A DNA stretch of 50,737 nt, taken from Nemertoderma westbladi (taxonomy: Eukaryota > Animalia > Xenacoelomorpha). The position numbers and the translations under genes were made by a program. The stretch spans positions 1-50,737 of the forward strand of contig JAUCBJ010005844.1 in the NCBI GenBank assembly GCA_032718475.1, in the 5' to 3' direction. The notes under the pieces were generated by a model. It was not told the origin of the DNA. It did not search any database and saw only the letters and a list, made by a program, of their open reading frames with translations. Below are positions 13,727 to 50,456 of this stretch, piece after piece. Numbering within the stretch: the stretch's first letter is position 1; the number at the start of each line of letters is the position of its first letter.

Positions 13727-13797
13727 TAATAAATAATAATAATATATATTTATTTATATAGCGCCAAATTTACATAATATACGTACTCTAAGGCGCT
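13727..13797 (-). other. LINE 3' terminal stem-loop and (TTA)n tail
   Basis: Inverted repeat AGCGCC (13760-13765)/GGCGCT (13792-13797), followed on the minus strand by ATATAAAT and TTA repeats. In L2-clade LINEs a 3' stem-loop plus short repeat tail is the RT recognition signal. Confidence 0.7.
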
Positions 13798-14297
13798 GAC
13801 AGCACATAGTACACAGTAATTAATAGTTCGTGAATGCAATAGCAATAGTTATGAAATAAAAAAATCAACTAAAATAATGTAGTAATTAAAAACCAACAAT
13901 AAAAACATCATAAAATATAGTAAAAACAAACAATAAAAACGATCATCGTAAATATTGTAGCATATAGTAAAAAACAAACAATAAAAAAAAACGATCAACG
14001 CAAGCATTCCAGTGCGGGTTAAATTAAAATGTAATTAATGGCAGAATAGAATATAATGGCAGTGATAATGAATTAAAATTAATAGTAAAAACAAACAATA
14101 AAAACAACTGTTATGGTGGACTTTTTAAGATTTAAAATATATTGATGTTAAAAACAATCGTGTATACATCCAGTACTTAAGTTAAAATTAAATTTAAAAT
14201 TGAAAGTAATTAATTAAAAAATGTCAGTCGTCCATTAAAACAAATAAATAATGTTTAGTTTAGATTTAACTTCATATGCACAGCGTAATATAGGACA

Positions 14298-14714
14298 CTA
14301 GTTTACGTGGTATTCCAGATTGTACAGGTGAGTTTTTAGACGTTTCTTAAAAATGCCCACATTCGATGATTCGCGTATGGCCGGAGGCAATGCGTTCCAT
14401 ACAGTTGGAGCAGCAATGGAGAACGATCGCCTACCATAATGTTCCGTATTGTAGCGAGGGGCCACGAGTAAACCCAGCCCGCTGGATCGCATCTCGCGGA
14501 TGGGTAGGTACGGAGTTAGTAAGTCGCTTAGATACTTCGGGGCACAGTTATTTACGCATTTCCAAGTTAGCAAGGCAATTTTAAAGTCTATGCGGCGAAC
14601 TATAGGTAACCAGTGCAATGCTTTTAGGGTTGGAGTTATATGGTCCCTCTTCTTTACACCACATAGAAGTCGAGCCGCGGAGTTTTGAACGTACTGTAGT
14701 TTCTGAATGGATTT
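14298..14714 (-). pseudogene. C-terminal fragment (138 aa) of LINE ORF2 reverse transcriptase protein
   Basis: Frame open from the truncation point to the stop: KSIQKLQYVQNSAARLLCGVKKRDHITPTLKALHWLPIVRRIDFKIALL...APKYLSDLL...GRRSFSIAAPTVWNALP...FKKRLKTHLY. Matches the LQxVQNxAAR, HITPxLxxLHWLP and WNxLP motifs of L2-type ORF2 ends. Confidence 0.92.
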
Positions 14715-14715
14715 T

Positions 14716-31193: not shown

Positions 31194-31430
31194 TGCAGAC
31201 ACCTGGTGCAGACACCTGGTGCAGACAACTGGTGCAGACACCTGGTGCAGACACCTGGTGCAGACACCTGGTGCAGACACCTGGTGCAGACACCTGGTGC
31301 AGACACCTGGTGGGTGCAGACACCTGGTGGGTGCAGACACCTGGTGCAGACACCTGGTGCAGACACCTGGTGCAGACACCTAGTGCAGACACCTGGTGCA
31401 GACACCTGGTGCAGACACCTGGTGCAGACA
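31194..31430. repeat. 13-bp minisatellite (TGCAGACACCTGG)n, ~18 copies
   Basis: Read directly; two units have a 4-bp GTGG insertion. Explains the overlapping repetitive ORFs at 31060-31559. Confidence 0.97.
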
Positions 31431-32307
31431 GTTAGGCAGACCGGTACTGAAATGAATTACACAATAGCCTACATTCGCAGAAAAGCCTTTCTAGAATTAT
31501 CACTTATGACTACTTATTTGCGTGCATTTTTCACTGGGATTGGCTGCGTGCGTGTCTAGCGTCGTCTCTTTGATTACGTTGAACCATTGGCAATATACAG
31601 AATGTTTTGATTGGACCTATAGGACTAGGAACTTTGCGTGGAAGAATATAATGGTAGAAATCATAACAAATAATACTCATATAACTTATATTTCGGCAGT
31701 TCTTTTAAATATGTAAACCTCTACCGGACTGCTGATTCATATACATTCCTAACATTCCACACCACATTCCAATAATATCCTAATACAGTAATACTTTCGA
31801 ATTAGTACTTAAATTAAATTTAAGTCACGTGCTGCGCGAAGGCCCCACTTCGTGTTACTATTTACCCTATATATTTTAAATACTTCATTTTTATTAGTTA
31901 ATGTGTTTCAAATTGTCAGTCAGTTTTGTGTATTATGTTACTACCTTAACGTACACGTAGACATTTCTAATTTTTTTCTGACATTGGAACACTATCGGCG
32001 CTTTATCAATACATTTTTAAAATAATAACGTGGTAAATAAAACATTTTAAAGTAATTATTCAACACCCACTACGGCCTGTTTCGCAGAAGCTTGAAATAT
32101 TTTATATAAGCATACGCGAGCTCTCATCAACAGACTGAAACGTGATTGGCGCAAGTTTATAGTGCCGCTTCCCAGTGGTTAGTTAGAGCCCTTTTCATTG
32201 CTCTATATTAATTACCAATGAGTTCCGTTTGTGGTATCTACCTGTGTTTTAGTTTTATTTTTTCGTTAAAAAACACCAAAATCACATTGCATCTGTAATT
32301 TCATTAG

Positions 32308-32331
32308 TTTGTAATTTTGTTTTTGTAACAG
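32308..32331 (+). promoter_or_regulatory. 3' splice site of the Maf1 exon (T-rich tract + CAG)
   Basis: tttgtaattttgtttttgtaacag immediately precedes the Maf1-like codons. Confidence 0.85.
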
Positions 32332-32451
32332 CTACAATCCAGACCTTCAGAGCGACCCTTATGGAGAAGATGGGAGTCTTTGGTCCTTCAATTATTTCTT
32401 CTACAATCAAAAACTCAAGAGAATGTTATTCTTTACGTGTAGAGCCACAAG
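32332..32451 (+). CDS. MAF1: Internal coding exon (120 nt, phase 2-2) of Maf1, repressor of RNA polymerase III transcription (C-box region)
   Basis: Translation from 32333: [39 protein letters not shown]. Aligns without gaps to human MAF1 as I recall it ([39 protein letters not shown]). Bounded by cag| and AAG|GTATGT. The ORF track shows this frame only from the ATG at 32423. Confidence 0.95.
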
Positions 32452-35400
32452 GTATGTTTGGTTATTCTTTACGTGTAGAGCCACAAGGTATGTTTGGTTA
32501 TTCTTTACTAGAGCCACAAGGTATGTTTGGTTATTCTTTACGTGTAGAGCCACAAGGTATGTTTGGTTATTCTTTACGTGTAGAGCCACAAGGTATGTTT
32601 GGTTATTCTTTACGTGTAGAGCCACAAGGTATGTTCGGTTATTCTTTACGTGTAGAGCCACAAGGTATGTTCGGTTATTCTTTACGTGTAGAGCGACAAG
32701 GTATGTTTGGTTATTCTTTACGTGTAGAGCCACAAGGTATGTTTGGTTATTCTTTACGTGTAGAGCCACAAGGTATGTTTGGTTATTCTTTACTAGAGCC
32801 ACAAGGTATGTTTGGTTATTCTTTACTAGAGCCACAAGGTATGTTTGGTTATTCTTTACTAGAGCCACAAGGTATGTTTGGTTATTCTTTACTTGAGCCA
32901 CAAGGTATGTTTGGTTATTCTTTACTAGAGCCACAAGGTATGTTTGGTTATTCTTTACTAGAGCCACAAGGTATGTTTGGTTATTCTTTACTTGAGCCAC
33001 AAGGTATGTTTGGTTATTCTTTACTAGAGCCACAAGGTATGTTCGGTTATTCTTTACGTGTAGAGCGACAAGGTATGTTTGGTTATTCTTTACGTGTAGA
33101 GCCACAAGGTATGTTTGGTTATTCTTTACGTGTAGAGCCACAAGGTATGTTTGGTTATTCTTTACTAGAGCCACAAGGTATGTTTGGTTATTCTTTACTA
33201 GAGCCACAAGGTATGTTTGGTTATTCTTTACTAGAGCCACAAGGTATGTTTGGTTATTCTTTACTAGAGCCACAAGGTATGTTTGGTTATTCTTTACTTG
33301 AGCCACAAGGTATGTTTGGTTATTCTTTACTAGAGCCACAAGGTATGTTTGGTTATTCTTTACTAGAGCCACAAGGTATGTTTGGTTATTCTTTACGTGT
33401 AGAGCCACAAGGTATGTTTGGTTATTCTTTACGTGTAGAGCCACAAGGTATGTTTGGTTATTCTTTACGTGTAGAGCGACAAGGTATGTTTGGTTATTCT
33501 TTACGTGTAGAGCCACAAGGTATGTTTGGTTATTCTTTACGTGTAGAGCCACAAGGTATGTTCGGTTATTCTTTACGTGTAGAGCGACAAGGTATGTTTG
33601 GTTATTCTTTACGTGTAGAGCCACAAGGTATGTTTGGTTATTCTTTACGTGTAGAGCCACAAGGTATGTTTGGTTATTCTTTACTAGAGCCACAAGGTAT
33701 GTTTGGTTATTCTTTACTAGAGCCACAAGGTATGTTTGGTTATTCTTTACGTGTAGAGCCACAAGGTATGTTTGGTTATTCTTTACGTGTAGAGCCACAA
33801 GGTATGTTTGGTTATTCTTTACGTGTAGAGCCACAAGGTATGTTTGGTTATTCTTTACGTGTAGAGCCACAAGGTATGTTTGGTTATTCTTTACTAGAGC
33901 CACAAGGTATGTTTGGTTATTCTTTACTAGAGCCACAAGGTATGTTTGGTTATTCTTTACGTGTAGAGCCACAAGGTATGTTTGGTTATTCTTTACTAGA
34001 GCCACAAGGTATGTTTGGTTATTCTTTACTAGAGCCACAAGGTATGTTTGGTTATTCTTTACGTGTAGAGCCACAAGGTATGTTTGGTTATTCTTTACTA
34101 GAGCCACAAGGTATGTTTGGTTATTCTTTACTAGAGCCACAAGGTATGTTTGGTTATTCTTTACGTGTAGAGCCACAAGGTATGTTTGGTTATTCTTTAC
34201 TAGAGCCACAAGGTATGTTTGGTTATTCTTTACTAGAGCCACAAGGTATGTTTGGTTATTCTTTACTAGAGCCACAAGGTATGTTTGGTTATTCTTTACG
34301 TGTAGAGCCACAAGGTATGTTTGGTTATTCTTTACGTGTAGAGCCACAAGGTATGTTTGGTTATTCTTTACGTGTAGAGCCACAAGGTATGTTTGGTTAT
34401 TCTTTACTAGAGCCACAAGGTATGTTTGGTTATTCTTTACTAGAGCCACAAGGTATGTTTGGTTATTCTTTACGTGTAGAGCCACAAGGTATGTTTGGTT
34501 ATTCTTTACTAGAGCCACAAGGTATGTTTGGTTATTCTTTACTAGAGCCACAAGGTATGTTTGGTTATTCTTTACGTGTAGAGCCACAAGGTATGTTTGG
34601 TTATTCTTTACGTGTAGAGCCACAAGGTATGTTTGGTTATTCTTTACTAGAGCCACAAGGTATGTTTGGTTATTCTTTACGTGTAGAGCCACAAGGTATG
34701 TTTGGTTATTCTTTACGTGTAGAGCCACAAGGTATGTTTGGTTATTCTTTACGTGTAGAGCCACAAGGTATGTTTGGTTATTCTTTACTAGAGCCACAAG
34801 GTATGTTTGGTTATTCTTTACGTGTAGAGCCACAAGGTATGTTTGGTTATTCTTTACGTGTAGAGCCACAAGGTATGTTTGGTTATTCTTTACTAGAGCC
34901 ACAAGTTATGTTTGGTTATTCTTTACTAGAGCCACAAGGTATGTTTGGTTATTCTTTACGTGTAGAGCCACAAGGTATGTTTGGTTATTCTTTACGTGTA
35001 GAGCCACAAGGTATGTTTGGTTATTCTTTACTAGAGCCACAAGGTATGTTTGGTTATTCTTTACTAGAGCCACAAGGTATGTTTGGTTATTCTTTACTTG
35101 AGCCACAAGGTATGTTTGGATATTCTTTACTAGAGCCACAAGGTATGTTTGGTTATTCTTTACTAGAGCCACAAGGTATGTTTGGTTATTCTTTACGTGT
35201 AGAGCCACAAGGTATGTTTGGTTATTCTTTACGTGTAGAGCCACAAGGTATGTTTGGTTATTCTTTACGTGTAGAGCGACAAGGTATGTTTGGTTATTCT
35301 TTACGTGTAGAGCCACAAGGTATGTTTGGTTATTCTTTACGTGTAGAGCCACAAGGTATGTTCGGTTATTCTTTACGTGTAGAGCGACAAGGTATGTTTG

Positions 35401-38400
35401 GTTATTCTTTACGTGTAGAGCCACAAGGTATGTTTGGTTATTCTTTACGTGTAGAGCCACAAGGTATGTTTGGTTATTCTTTACTAGAGCCACAAGGTAT
35501 GTTTGGTTATTCTTTACTAGAGCCACAAGGTATGTTTGGTTATTCTTTACGTGTAGAGCCACAAGGTATGTTTGGTTATTCTTTACGTGTAGAGCCACAA
35601 GGTATGTTTGGTTATTCTTTACGTGTAGAGCCACAAGGTATGTTTGGTTATTCTTTACGTGTAGAGCCACAAGGTATGTTTGGTTATTCTTTACTAGAGC
35701 CACAAGGTATGTTTGGTTATTCTTTACTAGAGCCACAAGGTATGTTTGGTTATTCTTTACGTGTAGAGCCACAAGGTATGTTTGGTTATTCTTTACTAGA
35801 GCCACAAGGTATGTTTGGTTATTCTTTACTAGAGCCACAAGGTATGTTTGGTTATTCTTTACGTGTAGAGCCACAAGGTATGTTTGGTTATTCTTTACTA
35901 GAGCCACAAGGTATGTTTGGTTATTCTTTACTAGAGCCACAAGGTATGTTTGGTTATTCTTTACTAGAGCCACATGGTATGTTTGGTTATTCTTTACGTG
36001 TAGAGCCACAAGGTATGTTTGGTTATTCTTTACGTGTAGAGCCACAAGGTATGTTTGGTTATTCTTTACGTGTAGAGCCACAAGGTATGTTTGGTTATTC
36101 TTTACTAGAGCCACAAGGTATGTTTGGTTATTCTTTACTAGAGCCACAAGGTATGTTTGGTTATTCTTTACGTGTAGAGCCACAAGGTATGTTTGGTTAT
36201 TCTTTACTAGAGCCACAAGGTATGTTTGGTTATTCTTTACTAGAGCCACAAGGTATGTTTGGTTATTCTTTACGTGTAGAGCCACAAGGTATGTTTGGTT
36301 ATTCTTTACGTGTAGAGCCACAAGGTATGTTTGGTTATTCTTTACTAGAGCCACAAGGTATGTTTGGTTATTCTTTACGTGTAGAGCCACAAGGTATGTT
36401 TGGTTATTCTTTACGTGTAGAGCCACAAGGTATGTTTGGTTATTCTTTACGTGTAGAGCCACAAGGTATGTTTGGTTATTCTTTACTAGAGCCACAAGGT
36501 ATGTTTGGTTATTCTTTACGTGTAGAGCCACAAGGTATGTTTGGTTATTCTTTACGTGTAGAGCCACAAGGTATGTTTGGTTATTCTTTACTAGAGCCAC
36601 AAGGTATGTTTGGTTATTCTTTACTAGAGCCACAAGGTATGTTTGGTTATTCTTTACGTGTAGAGCCACAAGGTATGTTTGGTTATTCTTTACGTGTAGA
36701 GCCACAAGGTATGTTTGGTTATTCTTTACGTGTAGAGCCACAAGGTATGTTTGGTTATTCTTTACGTGTAGAGCCACAAGGTATGTTTGGTTATTCTTTA
36801 CGTGTAGAGCCACAAGGTATGTTTGGTTATTCTTTACTAGAGCCACAAGGTATGTTTGGTTATTCTTTACTAGAGCCACAAGGTATGTTTGGTTATTCTT
36901 TACGTGTAGAGCCACAAGGTATGTTTGGTTATTCTTTACTAGAGCCACAAGGTATGTTTGGTTATTCTTTACTAGAGCCACAAGGTATGTTTGGTTATTC
37001 TTTACGTGTAGAGCCACAAGGTATGTTTGGTTATTCTTTACGTGTAGAGCCACAAGGTATGTTCGGTTATTCTTTACGTGTAGAGCCACAAGGTATGTTT
37101 GGTTATTCTTTACTAGAGCCACAAGGTATGTTTGGTTATTCTTTACTAGAGCCACAAGGTATGTTTGGTTATTCTTTACGTGTAGAGCCACAAGGTATGT
37201 TTGGTTATTCTTTACTAGAGCCACAAGGTATGTTTGGTTATTCTTTACTAGAGCCACAAGGTATGTTTGGTTATTCTTTACGTGTAGAGCCACAAGGTAT
37301 GTTTGGTTATTCTTTACGTGTAGAGCCACAAGGTATGTTTGGTTATTCTTTACGTGTAGAGCCACAAGGTATGTTTGGTTATTCTTTACGTGTAGAGCCA
37401 CAAGGTATGTTTGGTTATTCTTTACTAGAGCCACAAGGTATGTTTGGTTATTCTTTACTAGAGCCACAAGGTATGTTTGGTTATTCTTTACGTGTAGAGC
37501 CACAAGGTATGTTTGGTTATTCTTTACTAGAGCCACAAGGTATGTTTGGTTATTCTTTACTAGAGCCACAAGGTATGTTTGGTTATTCTTTACTAGAGCC
37601 ACAAGGTATGTTTGGTTATTCTTTACGTGTAGAGCCACAAGGTATGTTCGGTTATTCTTTACGTGTAGAGCCACAAGGTATGTTTGGTTATTCTTTACTA
37701 TAGCCACAAGGTATGTTTGGTTATTCTTTACTAGAGCCACAAGGTATGTTTGGTTATTCTTTACTAGAGCCACAAGGTATGTTTGGTTATTCTTTACTAG
37801 AGCCACAAGGTATGTTTGGTTATTCTTTACTAGAGCCACAAGGTATGTTTGGTTATTCTTTACTAGAGCCACAAGGTATGTTTGGTTATTCTTTACTAGA
37901 GCCACAAGGTATGTTTGGTTATTCTTTACGTGTAGAGCCACAAGGTATGTTTGGTTATTCTTTACTAGAGCCACAAGGTATGTTTGGTTATTCTTTACTA
38001 GAGCCACAAGGTATGTTTGGTTATTCTTTACGTGTAGAGCCACAAGGTATGTTTGGTTATTCTTTACTAGAGCCACAAGGTATGTTTGGTTATTCTTTAC
38101 TAGAGCCACAAGGTATGTTTGGTTATTCTTTACGTGTAGAGCCACAAGGTATGTTTGGTTATTCTTTACTAGAGCCACAAGGTATGTTTGGTTATTCTTT
38201 ACTAGAGCCACAAGGTATGTTTGGTTATTCTTTACTAGAGCCACAAGGTATGTTTGGTTATTCTTTACGTGTAGAGCCACAAGGTATGTTTGGTTATTCT
38301 TTACGTGTAGAGCCACAAGGTATGTTTGGTTATTCTTTACGTGTAGAGCCACAAGGTATGTTTGGTTATTCTTTACTAGAGCCACAAGGTATGTTTGGTT

Positions 38401-41400
38401 ATTCTTTACTAGAGCCACAAGGTATGTTTGGTTATTCTTTACTAGAGCCACAAGGTATGTTTGGTTATTCTTTACTAGAGCCACAAGGTATGTTTGGTTA
38501 TTCTTTACTAGAGCCACAAGGTATGTTTGGTTATTCTTTACTAGAGCCACAAGGTATGTTTGGTTATTCTTTACTAGAGCCACAAGGTATGTTTGGTTAT
38601 TCTTTACTAGAGCCACAAGGTATGTTCGGTTATTCTTTACGTGTAGAGCCACAAGGTATGTTTAGTTATTCTTTACGTGTAGAGCCACAAGGTATGTTTG
38701 GTTATTCTTTACGTGTAGAGCCACAAGGTATGTTTGGTTATTCTTTACTAGAGCCACAAGGTATGTTTGGTTATTCTTTACTAGAGCCACAAGGTATGTT
38801 AGGTTATTCTTTACGTGTAGAGCCACAAGGTATGTTTGGTTATTCTTTACGTGTAGAGCCACAAGGTATGTTTGGTTATTCTTTACGTGTAGAGCCACAA
38901 GGTATGTTTGGTTATTCTTTACTAGAGCCACAAGGTATGTTTGGTTATTCTTTACTAGAGCCACAAGGTATGTTTGGTTATTCTTTACTAGAGCCACAAG
39001 GTATGTTTGGTTATTCTTTACTAGAGCCACAAGGTATGTTTGGTTATTCTTTACTAGAGCCACAAGGTATGTTTGGTTATTCTTTACTAGAGCCACAAGG
39101 TATGTTTGGTTATTCTTTACTAGAGCCACAAGGTATGTTCGGTTATTCTTTACGTGTAGAGCCACAAGGTATGTTTGGTTATTCTTTACTAGAGCCACAA
39201 GGTATGTTTGGTTATTCTTTACGTGTAGAGCCACAAGGTATGTTTGGATATTCTTTACTAGAGCCACAAGGTATGTTTTGTTATTCTTTACGTGTAGAGC
39301 CACAAGGTATGTTTAGTTATTCTTTACGTGTAGAGCCACAAGGTATGTTTGGTTATTCTTTACGTGTAGAGCCACAAGGTATGTTTGGTTATTCTTTACT
39401 AGAGCCACAAGGTATGTTTGGTTATTCTTTACTAGAGCCACAAGGTATGTTTGGTTATTCTTTACTAGAGCCACAAGGTATGTTTGGTTATTCTTTACTA
39501 GAGCCACAAGGTATGTTTGGTTATTCTTTACTAGAGCCACAAGGTATGTTTGGTTATTCTTTACTAGAGCCACAAGGTATGTTTGGTTATTCTTTACTAG
39601 AGCCACAAGGTATGTTTGGTTATTCTTTACTAGAGCCACAAGGTATGTTTGGTTATTCTTTACGTGTAGAGCCACAAGGTATGTTTGGTTATTCTTTACG
39701 TGTAGAGCCACAAGGTATGTTTGGTTATTCTTTACGTGTAGAGCCACAAGGTATGTTTGGTTATTCTTTACTAGAGCCACAAGGTATGTTTGGTTATTCT
39801 TTACTAGAGCCACAAGGTATGTTTGGTTATTCTTTACTAGAGCCACAAGGTATGTTTGGTTATTCTTTACTAGAGCCACAAGGTATGTTTGGTTATTCTT
39901 TACTAGAGCCACAAGGTATGTTTGGTTATTCTTTACTAGAGCCACAAGGTATGTTTGGTTATTCTTTACTAGAGCCACAAGGTATGTTCGGTTATTCTTT
40001 ACGTGGAGAGCCACAAGGTATGTTTGGTTATTCTTTACTAGAGCCACAAGGTATGTTTGGTTATTCTTTACGTGTAGAGCCACAAGGTATGTTTGGATAT
40101 TCTTTACTAGAGCCACAAGGTATGTTTGGTTATTCTTTACGTGTAGAGCCACAAGGTATGTTTGGATATTCTTTACTAGAGCCACAAGGTATGTTTGGTT
40201 ATTCTTTACGTGTAGAGCCACAAGGTATGTTTGGTTATTCTTTACTAGAGCCACAAGGTATGTTAGGTTATTCTTTACGTGTAGAGCCACAAGGTATGTT
40301 TGGTTATTCTTTACTAGAGCCACAAGGTATGTTAGGTTATTCTTTACGTGTAGAGCCACAAGGTATGTTTGGTTATTCTTTACTAGAGCCACAAGGTATG
40401 TTCGGTTATTCTTTACGTGTAGAGCCACAAGGTATGTTTGGTTATTCTTTACTAGAGCCACAAGGTATGTTTGGTTATTCTTTACTAGAGCCACAAGGTA
40501 TGTTAGGTTATTCTTTACGTGTAGAGCCACAAGGTATGTTTGGTTATTCTTTACTAGAGCCACAAGGTATGTTCGGTTATTCTTTACGTGTAGAGCCACA
40601 AGGTATGTTTGGATATTCTTTACTAGAGCCACAATGTATGTTTGGTTATTCTTTACGTGTAGAGCCACAAGGTATGTTTGGTTATTCTTTACTAGAGCCA
40701 CAAGGTATGTTAGGTTATTCTTTACGTGTAGAGCCACAAGGTATGTTTGGTTATTCTTTACTAGAGCCACAAGGTATGTTTGGATATTCTTTACTAGAGC
40801 CACAAGGTATGTTTGGTTATTCTTTACTAGAGCCACAAGGTATGTTTGGTTATTCTTTACTAGAGCCACAAGGTATGTTAGGTTATTCTTTACGTGTAGA
40901 GCCACAAGGTATGTTTGGTTATTCTTTACGTGTAGAGCCACAAGGTATGTTTGGTTATTCTTTACGTGTAGAGCCACAAGGTATGTTTGGTTATTCTTTA
41001 CGTGTAGAGCCACAAGGTATGTTTGGTTATTCTTTACTAGAGCCACAAGGTATGTTTGGTTATTCTTTACTAGAGCCACAAGGTATGTTTGGTTATTCTT
41101 TACTAGAGCCACAAGGTATGTTTGGTTATTCTTTACTAGAGCCACAAGGTATGTTCGGTTATTCTTTACGTGGAGAGCCACAAGGTATGTTTGGTTATTC
41201 TTTACTAGAGCCACAAGGTATGTTTGGTTATTCTTTACGTGTAGAGCCACAAGGTATGTTTGGATATTCTTTACTAGAGCCACAAGGTATGTTTGGTTAT
41301 TCTTTACGTGTAGAGCCACAAGGTATGTTTGGATATTCTTTACTAGAGCCACAAGGTATGTTTGGTTATTCTTTACGTGTAGAGCCACAAGGTATGTTTG

Positions 41401-44400
41401 GTTATTCTTTACTAGAGCCACAAGGTATGTTAGGTTATTCTTTACGTGTAGAGCCACAAGGTATGTTTGGTTATTCTTTACTAGAGCCACAAGGTATGTT
41501 AGGTTATTCTTTACGTGTAGAGCCACAAGGTATGTTTGGTTATTCTTTACTAGAGCCACAAGGTATGTTCGGTTATTCTTTACGTGTAGAGCCACAAGGT
41601 ATGTTTGGTTATTCTTTACTAGAGCCACAAGGTATGTTTGGTTATTCTTTACTAGAGCCACAAGGTATGTTAGGTTATTCTTTACGTGTAGAGCCACAAG
41701 GTATGTTTGGTTATTCTTTACTAGAGCCACAAGGTATGTTCGGTTATTCTTTACGTGTAGAGCCACAAGGTATGTTTGGATATTCTTTACTAGAGCCACA
41801 ATGTATGTTTGGTTATTCTTTACGTGTAGAGCCACAAGGTATGTTTGGTTATTCTTTACTAGAGCCACAAGGTATGTTAGGTTATTCTTTACGTGTAGAG
41901 CCACAAGGTATGTTTGGTTATTCTTTACTAGAGCCACAAGGTATGTTTGGATATTCTTTACTAGAGCCACAAGGTATGTTTGGTTATTCTTTACTAGAGC
42001 CACAAGGTATGTTTGGTTATTCTTTACTAGAGCCACAAGGTATGTTAGGTTATTCTTTACGTGTAGAGCCACAAGGTATGTTTGGTTATTCTTTACGTGT
42101 AGAGCCACAAGGTATGTTTGGTTATTCTTTACGTGTAGAGCCACAAGGTATGTTTGGTTATTCTTTACGTGTAGAGCCACAAGGTATGTTTGGTTATTCT
42201 TTACTAGAGCCACAAGGTATGTTTGGTTATTCTTTACTAGAGCCACAAGGTATGTTTGGTTATTCTTTACTAGAGCCACAAGGTATGTTTGGTTATTCTT
42301 TACTAGAGCCACAAGGTATGTTTGGTTATTCTTTACTAGAGCCACAAGGTATGTTTGGTTATTCTTTACTAGAGCCACAAGGTATGTTTGGTTATTCTTT
42401 ACTAGAGCCACAAGGTATGTTCGGTTATTCTTTACGTGTAGAGCCACAAGGTATGTTTGGTTATTCTTTACTAGAGCCACAAGGTATGTTTGGTTATTCT
42501 TTACGTGTAGAGCCACAAGGTATGTTTGGATATTCTTTACTAGAGCCACAATGTATGTTTGGTTATTCTTTACGTGTAGAGCCACAAGGTATGTTTGGTT
42601 ATTCTTTACTAGAGCCACAAGGTATGTTAGGTTATTCTTTACGTGTAGAGCCACAAGGTATGTTTGGTTATTCTTTACTAGAGCCACAAGGTATGTTAGG
42701 TTATTCTTTACGTGTAGAGCCACAAGGTATGTTTGGTTATTCTTTACTAGAGCCACAAGGTATGTTCGGTTATTCTTTACGTGTAGAGCCACAAGGTATG
42801 TTTGGTTATTCTTTACTAGAGCCACAAGGTATGTTTGGTTATTCTTTACTAGAGCCACAAGGTATGTTAGGTTATTCTTTACGTGTAGAGCCACAAGGTA
42901 TGTTTGGTTATTCTTTACTAGAGCCACAAGGTATGTTCGGTTATTCTTTACGTGTAGAGCCACAAGGTATGTTTGGTTATTCTTTACGTGTAGAGCCACA
43001 AGGTATGTTTGGTTATTCTTTACTAGAGCCACAAGGTATCTTCGGTTATTCTTTACGTGTAGATCCACAAGGTATGTTTGGTTATTCTTTACTAGAGCCA
43101 CAAGGTATGTTTGGTTATTCTTTACTAGAGCCACAAGGTATGTTTGGATATTCTTTACGTGTAGAGCCACAATGTATGTTTGGTTATTCTTTACGTGTAG
43201 AGCCACAAGGTATGTTTGGTTATTCTTTACTAGAGTCACAAGGTATGTTTGGATATTCTTTACTAGAGCCACAAGGTATGTTTGGTTATTCTTTACTAGA
43301 GCCACAAGGTATGTTTGGATATTCTTTACTAGAGCCACAAGGTATGTTTGGTTATTCTTTACGTGTAGAGCCACAAGGTATGTTCGGTTATTCTTTACGT
43401 GTAGAGCCACAAGGTATGTTTGGTTATTCTTTACTAGAGCCACAAGGTATGTTTGGTTATTCTTTACGTGTAGAGCCACAAGGTATGTTTGGTTATTCTT
43501 TACTAGAGCCACAAGGTATGTTTGGTTATTCTTTACTAGAGCCACAAGGTATGTTCGGTTATTCTTTACGTGTAGAGCCACAAGGTATGTTTGGTTATTC
43601 TTTACGTGTAGAGCCACAAGGTATGTTTGGTTATTCTTTACTAGAGCCACAAGGTATGTTTGGTTATTCTTTACTAGAGCCACAAGGTATGTTCGGTTAT
43701 TCTTTACGTGTAGAGCCACAAGGTATGTTTGGTTATTCTTTACGTGTAGAGCCACAAGGTATGTTTGGTTATTCTTTACTAGAGCCACAAGGTATGTTCG
43801 GTTATTCTTTACGTGTAGAGCCACAAGGTATGTTTGGTTATTCTTTACTAGAGCCACAAGGTATGTTTGGTTATTCTTTACTAGAGCCACAAGGTATGTT
43901 TGGATATTCTTTACGTGTAGAGCCACAATGTATGTTTGGTTATTCTTTACGTGTAGAGCCACAAGGTATGTTTGGTTATTCTTTACTAGAGTCACAAGGT
44001 ATGTTTGGTTATTCTTTACTAGAGCCACAAGGTATGTTTGGATATTCTTTACTAGAGCCACAAGGTATGTTTGGTTATTCTTTACTAGAGCCACAAGGTA
44101 TGTTTGGTTATTCTTTACTAGAGCCACAAGGTATGTTCGGTTATTCTTTACGTGTAGAGCCACAAGGTATGTTTGGTTTTTCTTTACTAGAGCCACAAGG
44201 TATGTTTGGTTATTCTTTACGTGTAGAGCCACAAGGTATGTTTGGTTATTCTTTACTAGAGCCACAAGGTATGTTTGGTTATTCTTTACGTGTAGAGCCA
44301 CAAGGTATGTTTGGTTATTCTTTACGTGTAGAGCCACAAGGTATGTTTGGTTATTCTTTACTAGAGCCACAAGGTATGTTAGGTTATTCTTTACGTGTAG

Positions 44401-47400
44401 AGCCACAAGGTATGTTTGGTTATTCTTTACGTGTAGAGCCACAAGGTATGTTTGGTTATTCTTTACTAGAGCCACAAGGTATGTTTGGATTTTCTTTACG
44501 TGTAGAGCCACAATGTATGTTTGGTTATTCTTTACGTGTAGAGCCACAAGGTATGTTTGGTTATTCTTTACTAGAGTCACAAGGTATGTTTGGTTATTCT
44601 TTACTAGAGCCACAAGGTATGTTTGGATATTCTTTACTAGAGCCACAAGGTATGTTTGGTTATTCTTTACTAGAGCCACAAGGTATGTTTGGTTATTCTT
44701 TACTAGAGCCACAAGGTATGTTCGGTTATTCTTTACGTGTAGAGCCACAAGGTATGTTTGGTTATTCTTTACTAGAGCCACAAGGTATGTTTGGTTATTC
44801 TTTACGTGTAGAGCCACAAGGTATGTTTGGTTATTCTTTACTAGAGCCACAAGGTATGTTTGGTTATTCTTTACGTGTAGAGCCACAAGGTATGTTTGGA
44901 TATTCTTTACGTGTAGAGCCACAAGGTATGTTTGGTTATTCTTTACTAGAGCCACAAGGTATGTTTGGATATTCTTTACGTGTAGAGCCACAATGTATGT
45001 TTGGTTATTCTTTACGTGTAGAGCCACAAGGTATGTTTGGTTATTCTTTACTAGAGCCACAAGGTATGTTTGGATATTCTTTACTAGAGCCACAAGGTAT
45101 GTTCGGTTATTCTTTACGTGTAGAGCCACAATGTATGTTTGGTTATTCTTTACGTGTAGAGCCACAAGGTATGTTTGGTTATTCTTTACTAGAGACACAA
45201 GGTATGTTTGGTTATTCTTTACTAGAGACACAAGGTATGTTTGGTTATTCTTTACTAGAGCCACAAGGTATGTTTGGATATTCTTTACTAGAGCCACAAG
45301 GTATGTTTGGATATTCTTTACTAGAGCCACAAGGTATGTTTGGTTATTCTTTACGTGTAGAGCCACAAGGTATGTTTGGTTATTCTTTACTAGAGCCACA
45401 AGGTATGTTCGGTTATTCTTTACGTGTAGAGCCACAAGGTATGTTTGGTTATTCTTTACGTGTAGAGCCACAAGGTATGTTTGGTTATTCTTTACTAGAG
45501 CCACAAGGTATGTTTGGTTATTCTTTACTAGAGCCACAAGGTATGTTCGGTTATTCTTTACGTGTAGAGCCACAAGGTATGTTTGGTTATTCTTTACTAG
45601 AGCCACAAGGTATGTTTGGTTATTCTTTACGTGTAGAGCCACAAGGTATGTTTGGTTATTCTTTACGTGTAGAGCCACAAGGTATGTTTGGTTATTCTTT
45701 ACGTGTAGAGCCACAAGGTATGTTTGGTTATTCTTTACTTGATACCACAAGGTATGTTTGGTTATTCTTTACGTGTAGAGCCACAAGGTATGTTTGGTTA
45801 TTCTTTACTAGAGTCACAAGGTATGTTTGGATATTCTTTACTAGAGCCACAAGGTATGTTTGGTTATTCTTTACGTGTAGAGCCACAAGGTATGTTTGGT
45901 TATTCTTTACTAGAGCCACAAGGTATGTTCGGTTATTCTTTACGTGTAGAGCCACAAGGTATGTTTGGATATTCTTTACTAGAGCCACAATGTATGTTTG
46001 GTTATTCTTTACGTGTAGAGCCACAAGGTATGTTTGGTTATTCTTTACTAGAGCCACAAGGTATGTTCGGTTATTCTTTACGTGTAGAGCCACAAGGTAT
46101 GTTTGGTTATTCTTTACTAGAGTCACAAGGTATGTTTGGTTATTCTTTACGTGTAGAGCCACAAGGTATGTTTGGTTATTCTTTACTAGAGCCACAAGGT
46201 ATGTTTGGTTATTCTTTACTAGAACCACAAGGTATGTTTGGTTATTCTTTACTAGAGCCACAAGGTATGTTTGGTTATTCTTTACGTGTAGAGCCACAAG
46301 GTATGTTTGGTTATTCTTTACGTGTAGAGCCACAAGGTATGTTTGGTTATTCTTTACTAGAGGCACAAGGTATGTTTGGTTATTCTTTACTAGAGCCACA
46401 AGGTATGTTTGGTTATTCTTTACTAGAGCCACAAGGTATGTTTGGTTATTCTTTACGTGTAGAGCCACAAGGTATGTTTGGTTATTCTTTACGTGTAGAG
46501 CCACAAGGTATGTTTGGTTATTCTTTACTAGAGCCACAAGGTATGTTTGGTTATTCTTTACGTGTAGAGCCACAAGGTATGTTTGGTTATTCTTTACGTG
46601 TAGAGCCACAAGGTATGTTTGGTTATTCTTTACTAGAGCCACAAGGTATGTTCGGTTATTCTTTACGTGTAGAGCCACAAGGTATGTTTGGTTATTCTTT
46701 ACGTGTAGAGCCACAAGGTATGTTTGGTTATTCTTTACTAGAGCCACAAGGTATGTTCGGTTATTCTTTACGTGTAGAGCCACAAGGTATGTTTGGTTAT
46801 TCTTTACGTGTAGAGCCACAAGGTATGTTTGGTTATTCTTTACTAGAGCCACAAGGTATGTTCGGTTATTCTTTACGTGTAGAGCCACAAGGTATGTTCG
46901 GTTATTCTTTACGTGTAGAGCCACAAGGTATGTTTGGTTATTCTTTACGTGTAGAGCCACAAGGTATGTTTGGTTATTCTTTACTAGAGCCACAAGGTAT
47001 GTTCGGTTATTCTTTACGTGTAGAGTCACAAGGTATGTTTGGTTATTCTTTACTAGAGCCACAAGGTATGTTCGGGTATTCTTTACTAGAGCCACAAGGT
47101 ATGTTCGGTTATTCTTTACTAGAGCCACAATGTATGTTTGGTTATTCTTTACTAGAGCCACAAGGTATGTTCGGTTATTCTTTACGTGTAGAGCCACAAG
47201 GTATGTTTGGTTATTCTTTACGTGTAGAGCCACAAGGTATGTTTGGTTATTCTTTACTAGAGCCACAAGGTATGTTCGGTTATTCTTTACGTGTAGAGCC
47301 ACAAGGTATGTTCGGTTATTCTTTACGTGTAGAGCCACAAGGTATGTTTGGTTATTCTTTACGTGTAGAGCCACAAGGTATGTTTGGTTATTCTTTACTA

Positions 47401-48459
47401 GAGCCACAAGGTATGTTCGGTTATTCTTTACGTGTAGAGTCACAAGGTTTGTTTGGTTATTCTTTACTAGAGCCACAAGGTATGTTTGGTTATTCTTTAC
47501 TAGAGCCACAAGGTATGTTTGGTTATTCTTTACTAGAGCCACAAGGTATGTTCGGGTATTCTTTACTAGAGCCACAAGGTATGTTCGGTTATTCTTTACT
47601 AGAGCCACAAGGTATGTTTGGTTATTCTTTACGTGTAGAGCCACAAGGTATGTTTGGTTATTCTTTACGTGTAGAGCCACAAGGTATGTTTGGTTATTCT
47701 TTACGTGTAGAGCCACAAGGTATGTTTGGTTATTCTTTACTAGAGCCACAAGGTATGTTCGGTTATTCTTTACGTGTAGAGCCACAAGGTATGTTTGGTT
47801 ATTCTTTACGTGTAGAGCCACAAGGTATGTTTGGTTATTCTTTACTAGAGCCACAAGGTATGTTCGGTTATTCTTTACGTGTAGAGCCACAAGGTATGTT
47901 CGGTTATTCTTTACGTGTAGAGCCACAAGGTATGTTTGGTTATTCTTTACGTGTAGAGCCACAAGGTATGTTTGGTTATTCTTTACTAGAGCCACAAGGT
48001 ATGTTCGGTTATTCTTTACGTGTAGAGTCACAAGGTATGTTTGGTTATTCTTTACTAGAGCCACAAGGTATGTTCGGGTATTCTTTACTAGAGCCACAAG
48101 GTATGTTCGGTTATTCTTTACTAGAGCCACAATGTATGTTTGGTTATTCTTTACTAGAGCCACAAGGTATGTTTGGTTATTCTTTACTAGAGCCACAAGG
48201 TATGTTTGGTTATTCTTTACGTGTAGAGCCACAAGGTATGTTTGGTTATTCTTTACTAGAGCCACAAGGTATGTTCGGTTATTCTTTACGTGTAGAGCCA
48301 CAAGGTTTGTTTGGTTATTCTTTACTAGAGCCACAAGGTATGTTTGGTTATTCTTTACGTGTAGAGCCACAAGGTATGTTTGGTTATTCTTTACTAGAGC
48401 CACAAGGTATGTTCGGTTATTCTTTACGTGTAGAGCCACAAGGTATGTTTGGTTATTCT
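32425..48459. repeat. Satellite B: mixed 36-bp and 33-bp units, ~465 copies, derived from the Maf1 exon end and 5' splice site
   Basis: 36-mer GTTATTCTTTACGTGTAGAGCCACAAGGTATGTTTG; the 33-mer lacks GTG. The first unit overlaps the last 27 nt of the exon. First and last units are 36-mers; the array ends at GTTATTCT|CTGCC. Confidence 0.99.
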
Positions 48460-48483
48460 CTGCCCCAAATGTGTACGTATGTT

Positions 48484-48524
48484 TGTGGGGCGAGCCACGT
48501 AAGTACACGTGAGCCTTGGCGTAT
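48484..48524 (+). mobile_element. Second, degraded copy of the head of the 30410 element
   Basis: TGTGGGGCGAGCCACGtAAGT..GAGCCTTgGCGtATT versus TGTGGGGCGAGCCACGAAGT..GAGCCTTAGCGAATT at 30418; the first 16 bp are identical. Confidence 0.7.
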
Positions 48525-48593
48525 TAGGGTTTTGGTGGGTGGGAGTTGGTATTATTTTGGGGGGGGATTTTAATTTTATGTTGTGTTATGTGC

Positions 48594-50456
48594 GTTTGAT
48601 AGGGGGTTGTATTGGTGGTGTGATATTGGTTATTTATTGTTTTGGGGTGAGTTGAGTGGTATGTAGGTGTATTGTGGTGTTTATTGTTGTATTTGTGGTA
48701 GGGATTGGGTAGATGTATTGGGTGTTTGTTGTTATGGAGGGGGGAGGTTATTATGGTGTTTTGGGTTTGGAGGGGGTTAGGGGTGTGGGGTTGGGGAGTT
48801 TAGGTTTTGGAGGAGTGTTGGAGGGTTTTGGGTGTATTGGGGTGATTTGGTGGGTTGTAATTGTTTGTAGGAGGATGGGTTTGTGTTTGGTGGGTTTGTG
48901 AGTGTTGATTTTGGTAGTAGGGTAGTTGTGGGGGTGGTTGGGGGGGGTTAGGGGTGTGGGTGGGGGGTAAATGTGGTGTTTGGTGGTAAAGGAGGAGGGA
49001 GGGAGGGGGGGGGAGGAGAGGGGTGTTTATGAATTGTGTGGTGGGGGATGTTTGGATTTTGGTGGGGAGAGTGTGAATGGGTGTGTGGGTTGTTGTTTGT
49101 ATATTGGGGGGTTTTGGGGGGTGGGTGAGATGGTGTGTGAGGGGATTATTGGTTGAGAGTGGGGAGGGATTTTGGTGGATAAATAGTGTGTGGGGGGGGG
49201 GAGTGAGGGGAGGTATGGGGGGGTAGGGGGGGGGAGTAGTTGGAGGGTTGGGGTGAGGGTAGGGTTAGTTATATGGGGGATTGGTGGTTAGATTGTTTTT
49301 ATTGTTTAGATTGTTATGGGTTGGGTTGAAAGTTATGGTTATGTATAAAAGGAGTTGAGGAAGGGGTATGGTATGTAGGGTGGGGTGAGTAGTTTGTTGG
49401 TGTGTGGGGTGTTTGAGTAGGATGAGTTTGGGGGATAGGGAGTGGGGAGGGGAGTTAGGGTGGTTTGTAGGGGTTGTTTTGTGGGGGGGAGGAGGGGGGG
49501 GGTGGAGTGTTTGTGTAGTTGGGGGGGGGGGGGGGTATTGTGGGGGGGGATTTTTAGGGATTTGTAGGGTGGTTGGTAGAGAGGGTGTAATAGGAGGTGA
49601 GAGAGATTATTATTATTAGTGTGTGTTTTGTGTTGTGTTATGGGGGGTGATTAGATTGGTAGGTTTGGGGGGGGTATGGGGGGGGGTAAAAAAAAAAAAA
49701 AGAAGAGGGATATTTTTTTTGGAGGGGTGTGGGTGTGGTAAGAAAAAAAAAAAAAAAAAATATTTTTTTGTGGGGTGGGATGGTTGGGTTGTTATGGTTT
49801 TATATTGTTTTGGGTTTATGGGTAGGGTTGTGTGAGGTAGTTTTGAAGTGTATGTAGGGTGTAGGATTTAGTATGGTAGGGTATGGTATGATTGGTGTAT
49901 GGGGGGAAGGGTTGGGGTGTGGTTTGGATTGGGGTGGGTGGGTGGGGTGGGGGGGGGAAGGGTGGAAATAGATGAGATTTGGGGGGGTGGTTTGGATTAG
50001 TTATGGTTTGATGTAAGGGGGTTTAAATAAAAGGATATTTTGGATAGATTGATTTAAAAAAAAAAAAAAAAAGAAGAAAAAGTGGGTATGTAGGGAGGTT
50101 AGAAAAATGTGAGGATTGTAATGGGGGGATATGAGTGTAGATGGTGTGTTTGTTATATGGGGGTTATATGGGGGGTGGGTGGTGGTTTGTTTGTTTGAAG
50201 AGTGAGTTATTGTTGGAGGGATTGAGGAGGTTATAAGTTGTGAGGGGTGGGGGAGATTAGAAAGTTTTTATTAGTATTTATTAGGTATAGTTGGTGTAGT
50301 AGGGGGGATTTTGATAGTTTGGGTAATTTTGGTTTGTTTTTGTGTTGATAGGAGGGTTATGGGGTAGGAAGAGTGATGGGAATTGTTGGTGTGAGGTTTT
50401 GGTAGGATGGTGTGAGGGGGGGTGGTAGTGTGGGAGTAAGGTGTTTGGGGGATTTG
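48594..50456. other. Cytosine-free G/T-rich low-complexity tract, probable low-quality read or assembly artefact
   Basis: No C seen on the + strand between 48593 and 50457; aperiodic, with long G and A homopolymers. Confidence 0.7.

Follow-up and report, generated by a model that had tools for sequence, protein, structure and literature searches.

The stretch of DNA analysed here, referred to as the window, comprises 50,737 nucleotides (nt) of a single contig from Nemertoderma westbladi. It contains one coding exon of the Maf1 gene, and the end of this exon runs directly into a long tandem array. The exon and its borders consist of the following features (a slash in a splice-site motif marks the exon-intron cut):

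32308 to 32331, plus strand: 3' splice site of the Maf1 exon (T-rich tract ending in AACAG), from the sequence, the point at which a contig of sequencing run X4 leaves the window, and the border in homologues.
32332 to 32451, plus strand: Maf1 coding exon of 120 nt, intact, phase 2 at both ends (YNPDL...FFTCRAT), from translation, Pfam, homologues and the X4 contig.
32449 to 32457, plus strand: first, authentic donor AAG/GTATGT, cut after 32451, from the sequence and the exon end in homologues.

The exon encodes the end of the Maf1 domain (Pfam PF09174, E 5.7e-15), and animal Maf1 homologues are 78-90% identical to it among the 120 matches listed of 544. Both exon borders recur in other animals: genomic-DNA records, for example P0003, P0008, P0010 and P0038, stop or diverge at the same two places. 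The coral-type homologues P0004, P0006, P0014 and P0016 differ by one or two residues directly after FTCRAT, which may reflect shifted acceptors of the next exon.

Is this exon copy transcribed? A 314-nt contig from run X4 (a run labelled 'DNA?') covers positions 32330-32451 at a depth of 500, with one difference over 122 nt. Upstream, it leaves the window sequence at the 3' splice site and continues in letters that, read by eye, encode EIQFNDCEVY. Homologues have matching residues in their upstream exon, for example EIAANECEVY and EISVNECEIY. Because the contig joins the exon to upstream-exon-like sequence, it represents a spliced molecule; the exon is therefore transcribed and spliced at its 5' end, which settles a doubt raised in the initial annotation, namely that this exon copy might never be transcribed. 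At its other end the contig stops at 32451, which is the first donor; this comes from one run and from filtered records, and contigs drop rare forms. No X4 contig lies on the array, and the X4 animal may carry another allele.

A tblastn search found no other Maf1 exon within the window, and the end of the upstream exon was not found there either; thus, the upstream intron must be longer than 32 kb. The solitary position of the exon could also mean that the array lies in a dead duplicate, in which case donor choice would be irrelevant. This is very unlikely, since the exon and both of its splice sites are intact, the spliced X4 contig is nearly identical to it, and run X2 has one contig over the exon, at an ordinary depth of 22.

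The array that begins inside the exon can be described by five further features:

32425 to 32460, plus strand: founding 36-nt unit, 27 nt of exon and 9 nt of intron, from the sequence and unit parsing.
32425 to 48459, plus strand: tandem array of 466 units and a partial unit, with block duplications of up to 37 units, from TRF, unit parsing and abundance in runs X1 and X2.
32894 to 32896, plus strand: first in-frame stop (TGA) in the array, with donors 2-13 upstream of it and in frame, from translation.
45727 to 45760, plus strand: the only frame-shifting unit, the single one of 34 nt, from unit parsing.
48452 to 48461, plus strand: terminal partial unit, 8 bases exact and 9 of 10 matching, from the sequence and a variant unit in X2.

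TRF reports 466.2 copies with a period of 33 over the 16,035 nt of the array. When cut into units, it yields 466 full ones (216 of 36 nt, 249 of 33 nt and one of 34 nt), in line with the approximately 465 copies given in the initial annotation. The start given there, 32332, is that of the exon; the array itself begins at 32425. The same annotation described the unit as 27 nt of exon encoding LFFTCRAT followed by 9 nt of intron, and unit 1 has exactly this make-up: its exon part (32425-32451) reads LFFTCRAT with split codons, and its intron part occupies 32452-32460. Unit 1 is the exon-coded form of the repeat and lies across the Maf1 donor, which supports the proposal that the array was born from this exon-intron junction. 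The 33-nt unit corresponds to the 36-nt unit without 3 nt of the exon-derived part. The complete donor motif AAG/GTATGT is kept in 450 of the 466 units and the GT in 465, so that the donors, earlier called identical, are so in the great majority of units, while the rest differ. No fixed multi-unit period, and hence no higher-order repeat structure, was detected in the array; block duplications are scattered through it at different spacings. Tandem arrays account for 88% of the window.

The term used for the array in the initial annotation was satellite. Classical satellite DNA forms multi-locus or megabase heterochromatic arrays, with an abundance far above that of one short locus. In X2, roughly 1-1.6 times the number of copies in the window suffices to explain the depth of the repeat; the array is a very long single-locus minisatellite, and "satellite" overstates it.

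This abundance was assessed with assembled contigs of public sequencing runs (six runs listed, from three studies). Three repeat contigs of X2, a DNA run, at depths of 5111, 6786 and 6224, have 31-mer multiplicities of 142, 184 and 190 in the window, which gives per-copy depths of 36.0, 36.9 and 32.8x. The six X2 contigs of at least 630 nt among the matches listed have depths of 12.6-38.4x and bracket these values. Because the X2 repeat depths fit the copy numbers of the window at 33-37x, like the long contigs of the same run, the array is real and not an artefact of assembly. Over 603 nt, X2 shows 8 letter differences and one gap relative to the window; it therefore represents another haplotype, in which the number of units is close to that of the window and the proportion of 33-nt to 36-nt forms is the same. 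Its contig over the exon starts at 31853 and breaks off at 32454, where the last 31-mer containing a unique base lies; a direct transition from exon to repeat would produce just such an end. The X2 depth leaves little room for large arrays elsewhere, although the placement of all units at this locus is beyond proof by depth.

Could a short repeat nevertheless have been inflated at a poor contig end? Two observations point in this direction. A stretch of 1,863 nt without C on the plus strand begins 135 nt past the array and resembles base-calling junk, and the depth in run X3 fits only about 5 copies. Inflation is nonetheless extremely unlikely: the units are present in hundreds of copies in both X1 (33-nt form, depth 11,588) and X2, the three X2 repeat contigs agree with the 33:36 make-up of the window, and the 16 kb of array contain a single indel together with nested block duplications. 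The initial annotation had named rarity of the unit k-mers in reads as a sign of artefact; contigs of X1 and X2 contain them at matching abundance. X3, which is filed under the same sample as X1, has one 33-nt contig (depth 156, near positions 32445-32500 of the window), about 40-fold below what the window predicts at the 31x depth of the other X3 contigs. The cause could be a restriction-based library, as the array has one GATC site in 16 kb, or a short allele.

There are further signs of possible variation between alleles. A contig of X1 has a depth of 202 against a multiplicity of 39, which suggests that the TTCG variant of the unit is rarer in X1 than in the window, and X2 holds a unit variant that is absent from the window. 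Either the unit make-up differs between haplotypes or the order of units in the window is imperfect. Candidate signs of allele variation are the X2 unit variant absent from the window, the apparently lower TTCG content of X1 and the low depth of X3; contigs cannot give allele lengths. At the right junction of the array no bridging contig was present among the matches listed, and positions 48532-48990 are without coverage in all four runs except for one short X3 match.

How did the array grow? It contains repeated blocks of 37, 23, 17, 17 and 14 units, whereas shuffled arrays (n=30) give blocks of at most 10; the number of variant units per quarter of the array is 18 and 16, then 42 and 50. From this pattern we infer block amplification by slippage or unequal exchange. 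The array closes with the incomplete unit GTTATTCT (48452-48459); when the comparison is carried on to 48461, 9 of 10 bases match. This 8-mer occurs 438 times in the window and every copy lies inside the array; the chance of the terminal match is about 5e-5 given the composition of the flank. It had been suggested that an ancestral 8-bp direct repeat seeded the first duplication. The array does end in the 8-bp match, and a microhomology seed is plausible but unproven, as a truncated last unit fits the array end equally well. In X2, an internal variant unit agrees with the terminal piece at its ninth base, which is compatible with either history. In the mechanism proposed here, slippage would first have duplicated 36 nt over the junction, probably aided by 8-10 nt of microhomology. 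A deletion of 3 nt would then have produced the 33-nt unit, and blocks of both unit types would have been amplified through unequal exchange or slippage. The genome is likely to grow giant intronic arrays readily, because the upstream intron of Maf1 holds another, unrelated array of at least 28 kb.

The copies show no sign of selection, either on the donors or on coding capacity. Of the 21 types of substitution, 5 affect the 9 nt of the donor, against an expectation of 25% (p=1). One of the 21 is synonymous, 18 are missense and 2 create a stop; since about 20% would be synonymous by chance, the copies have not been kept as coding sequence. Both main unit lengths are multiples of 3, and translation of the units in the frame of Maf1 gives LFFT(C)RATRYVW, a property on which the initial annotation did not remark. 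The first in-frame stop, at 32894, comes after 13 donors, and 387 of the 466 donors are in the Maf1 frame. A 1,816-residue open reading frame in another frame was rejected as a gene; it follows from stop-free units whose length is divisible by 3.

Which of the donors does the spliceosome use? Within each 36-nt unit, the donor is preceded by the 27 nt that precede the first donor and followed by the sequence that follows the first donor. Because the units share this context, local sequence hardly separates the donors, but position can. Use of the first donor gives an exon of 120 nt, use of donor 2 gives 156 nt and use of donor 13 gives 540 nt. In predicted RNA folding, the first donor is the most unpaired of the first 14 (0.147 versus 0.005-0.10); all of these values are low and model-dependent, and they were given no weight.

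Use of the first donor has precedents. In human F7, donors of identical sequence recur every 37 nt and are functional, yet splicing takes place at the most upstream one only; the first donor is also the only one in use in LMNB2 and PDGF (PMC1557585; the latter two as cited there). Splicing is reported to be undisturbed by the amphioxus minisatellites known as mirages (PMC3087553, PMC3902484). There are also reports to the contrary. When strong donors are duplicated in model substrates, splicing shifts to the downstream copy once the spacing exceeds approximately 30 nt, and the shift is almost complete by 45 nt (PMC3413131). The donor spacing of 33-36 nt in the Maf1 array lies inside this zone and counts against use of the first donor. 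The second or third donor is used to some degree in IFI6 and CBS (cited in PMC1557585), the second donor of ABCA7 is in use at a low level (PMC5954066), and repeats at exon-intron borders can alter splicing (PMC10078293, PMC2812944).

Taken together, it is likely that this 466-copy minisatellite, derived from an exon-intron junction, is neutral and that the spliceosome still acts on the first donor. As local contexts are near-identical, position would decide, and the donor that is nearest to the exon's acceptor and first to be transcribed would win, through exon definition or through 5'-to-3' scanning as in human F7. Donor 1 is expected to account for most splicing, with minor leakage that stays in frame. 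Leakage to donors 2-13 would insert in-frame repeats of 11-12 residues where the core of Maf1 meets its acidic tail, while later donors would meet a stop; the array would thus be tolerated rather than selected.

Alternatively, the array might modify splicing in a length-dependent manner, as in ABCA7, by reducing use of the next acceptor or by leaking to donors 2-13. Either the level of Maf1 or the acidic tail of the protein would then change, and with it the repression of RNA polymerase III. This would fit with the increase of ABCA7 exon 19 skipping with VNTR length and the use of its second donor (PMC5954066), with a spacing at which downstream donors can win (PMC3413131), and with units of 33 and 36 nt that contain no stop in the Maf1 frame before 32894 and place most donors in frame. 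However, synonymous changes are not in excess, units with stops have spread, and the divisibility of both length classes by 3 has a probability of 1 in 9 by chance; furthermore, F7 constructs were spliced at the upstream site only (PMC1557585). Such a modifier role is unlikely, and the same holds for the proposed effect on RNA polymerase III repression.

Another suggestion is that the intron is removed stepwise, with the units acting as recursive (dual-specific) sites or containing a 9-nt micro-exon. AG/GT is present in 450 units and the 33-nt unit also has a T-rich tract ending in TAG; this motif occurs in 243 copies, with 12 pyrimidines in 17 nt compared with 11 for the true acceptor. The resemblance is one of sequence only: the tract derives from the Leu and Phe codons of the exon, and the motif is conserved no better than neutral sequence. 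AAG is a weak acceptor and competing AGs lie just upstream. Stepwise removal is thus highly improbable for Maf1, despite the example of UBC, which is spliced through a tandem array of dual-specific sites (PMC10809524). More generally, it is quite unlikely that the donor array is active in Maf1 splicing, with its length setting the joining of the acidic-tail exon or the in-frame repeats, or with recursive removal via AG/GT. If it were, a repeat born from an exon would act as a heritable control on how strongly RNA polymerase III is repressed.

The neutral reading places the array in a known class. The initial annotation implied that the arrangement was novel; however, minisatellites that span a donor have already been named as mirages and F7-type VNTRs, ABCA7 alleles have about 427 donor-bearing units, and the Maf1 array stands out only by its size. 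Three of five features that define the class are present and none fails: the first monomer spans the true exon-intron boundary (unit 1 across the donor at 32451), the donor sequence is reiterated along the intron (450 of 466 units), and the unit is of minisatellite size (33 and 36 nt; cited cases, 10-160 bp). The other two are continued expression with splicing mainly at the first donor, for which the spliced X4 contig covers the upstream side of the exon, and variation between alleles, for which the contigs give candidate signs. Amphioxus mirages have been described in Adh3, the globins BflGb6 and BflGb9, troponin C and PGBD5. Like the Maf1 array, they repeat an exon-intron boundary in tandem, and part of each unit is exon sequence; their units measure 10-160 bp and their length is unstable (PMC3087553, PMC3902484). 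Mirages for which counts are given have 3-6 units (BflGb6), against 466 units and 16 kb in Maf1.

Human cases differ from the Maf1 array in several ways. The 37-bp VNTR of F7 intron 7 also has a first monomer that spans the donor and repeats donors every 37 nt, but it has 5-9 copies and includes 4 nt of exon, compared with 27 nt and in-frame units in Maf1 (PMC1557585). Furthermore, use of the first donor was tested by experiment in F7, while in Maf1 we infer it by analogy. IFI6, CBS, LMNB2 and PDGF have 10-25 copies (as cited in PMC1557585), and the copy number in Maf1 is 20-90 times that of the F7-type human cases. The 25-bp VNTR in intron 18 of ABCA7 likewise has a unit that starts with a donor GT, and its alleles reach 10,678 bp, or about 427 units, although the number of units with a full donor may be lower. 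This unit is wholly intronic and frame-shifting, whereas the Maf1 unit is three quarters exon; with long ABCA7 alleles, the downstream exon is skipped more often and the risk of disease is higher (PMC5954066). UBC resembles the Maf1 array in having tandem AGGT sites at each unit border; its units are coding and its sites have been shown to be in use, in contrast to the bare motif in Maf1 (PMC10809524).

A literature search that covered few subscription journals found no larger exon-containing donor array. The Maf1 array thus widens the size range of the known cases, with 466 copies in 16 kb compared with approximately 427 in 10.7 kb for ABCA7 and 3-25 for the exon-containing cases in the available reports. 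Owing to its spacing of 33-36 nt and near-identical local context, it is a handy natural substrate for the dispute between scanning for the first donor, as in F7, and downstream preference, as in model substrates. The gain is modest, since smaller arrays already permit the same test; it would be greater if allele length altered Maf1 isoforms.

The sequences around the array have features of their own. Directly past it, at 48462-48491, lies an imperfect palindrome with another copy of the first 9 nt of the intron (48477-48485), which runs into a dispersed repeat also present at about 30418. The stretch without C on the plus strand (48594-50456) is non-periodic and G/T-rich, with long runs of G and A. 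It is probably base-calling junk near the contig end and would be very odd if natural. A garbled copy of the array was considered for this tail and rejected: k-mer sharing lies within 1.3 sd of resampled controls, and a period of 33-36 is absent.

The second giant array occupies positions 1-29446, in the upstream Maf1 intron, and runs off the left end of the window; the place where it arose is outside this stretch. It consists of about 633 units of 46 bp and carries a donor-like AAG/GTGCGT on the Maf1 strand, in 579 exact copies. The possibility that it represents the end of the upstream Maf1 exon was rejected, as tblastn and a search for the exon end found no Maf1 exon match there. A 1-kb insert in this array (13727-14715) is flanked by a 15-nt duplication of array sequence and contains a 138-residue frame on the minus strand, for which Pfam gives no hit; the insert is presumably the 3' end of an L2-type LINE. 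The same intron contains a small 13-bp minisatellite of 17.6 copies at 31194-31430, and two short dispersed repeats, at 31780-31860 and 32134-32185, have very high depth in X1-X3.
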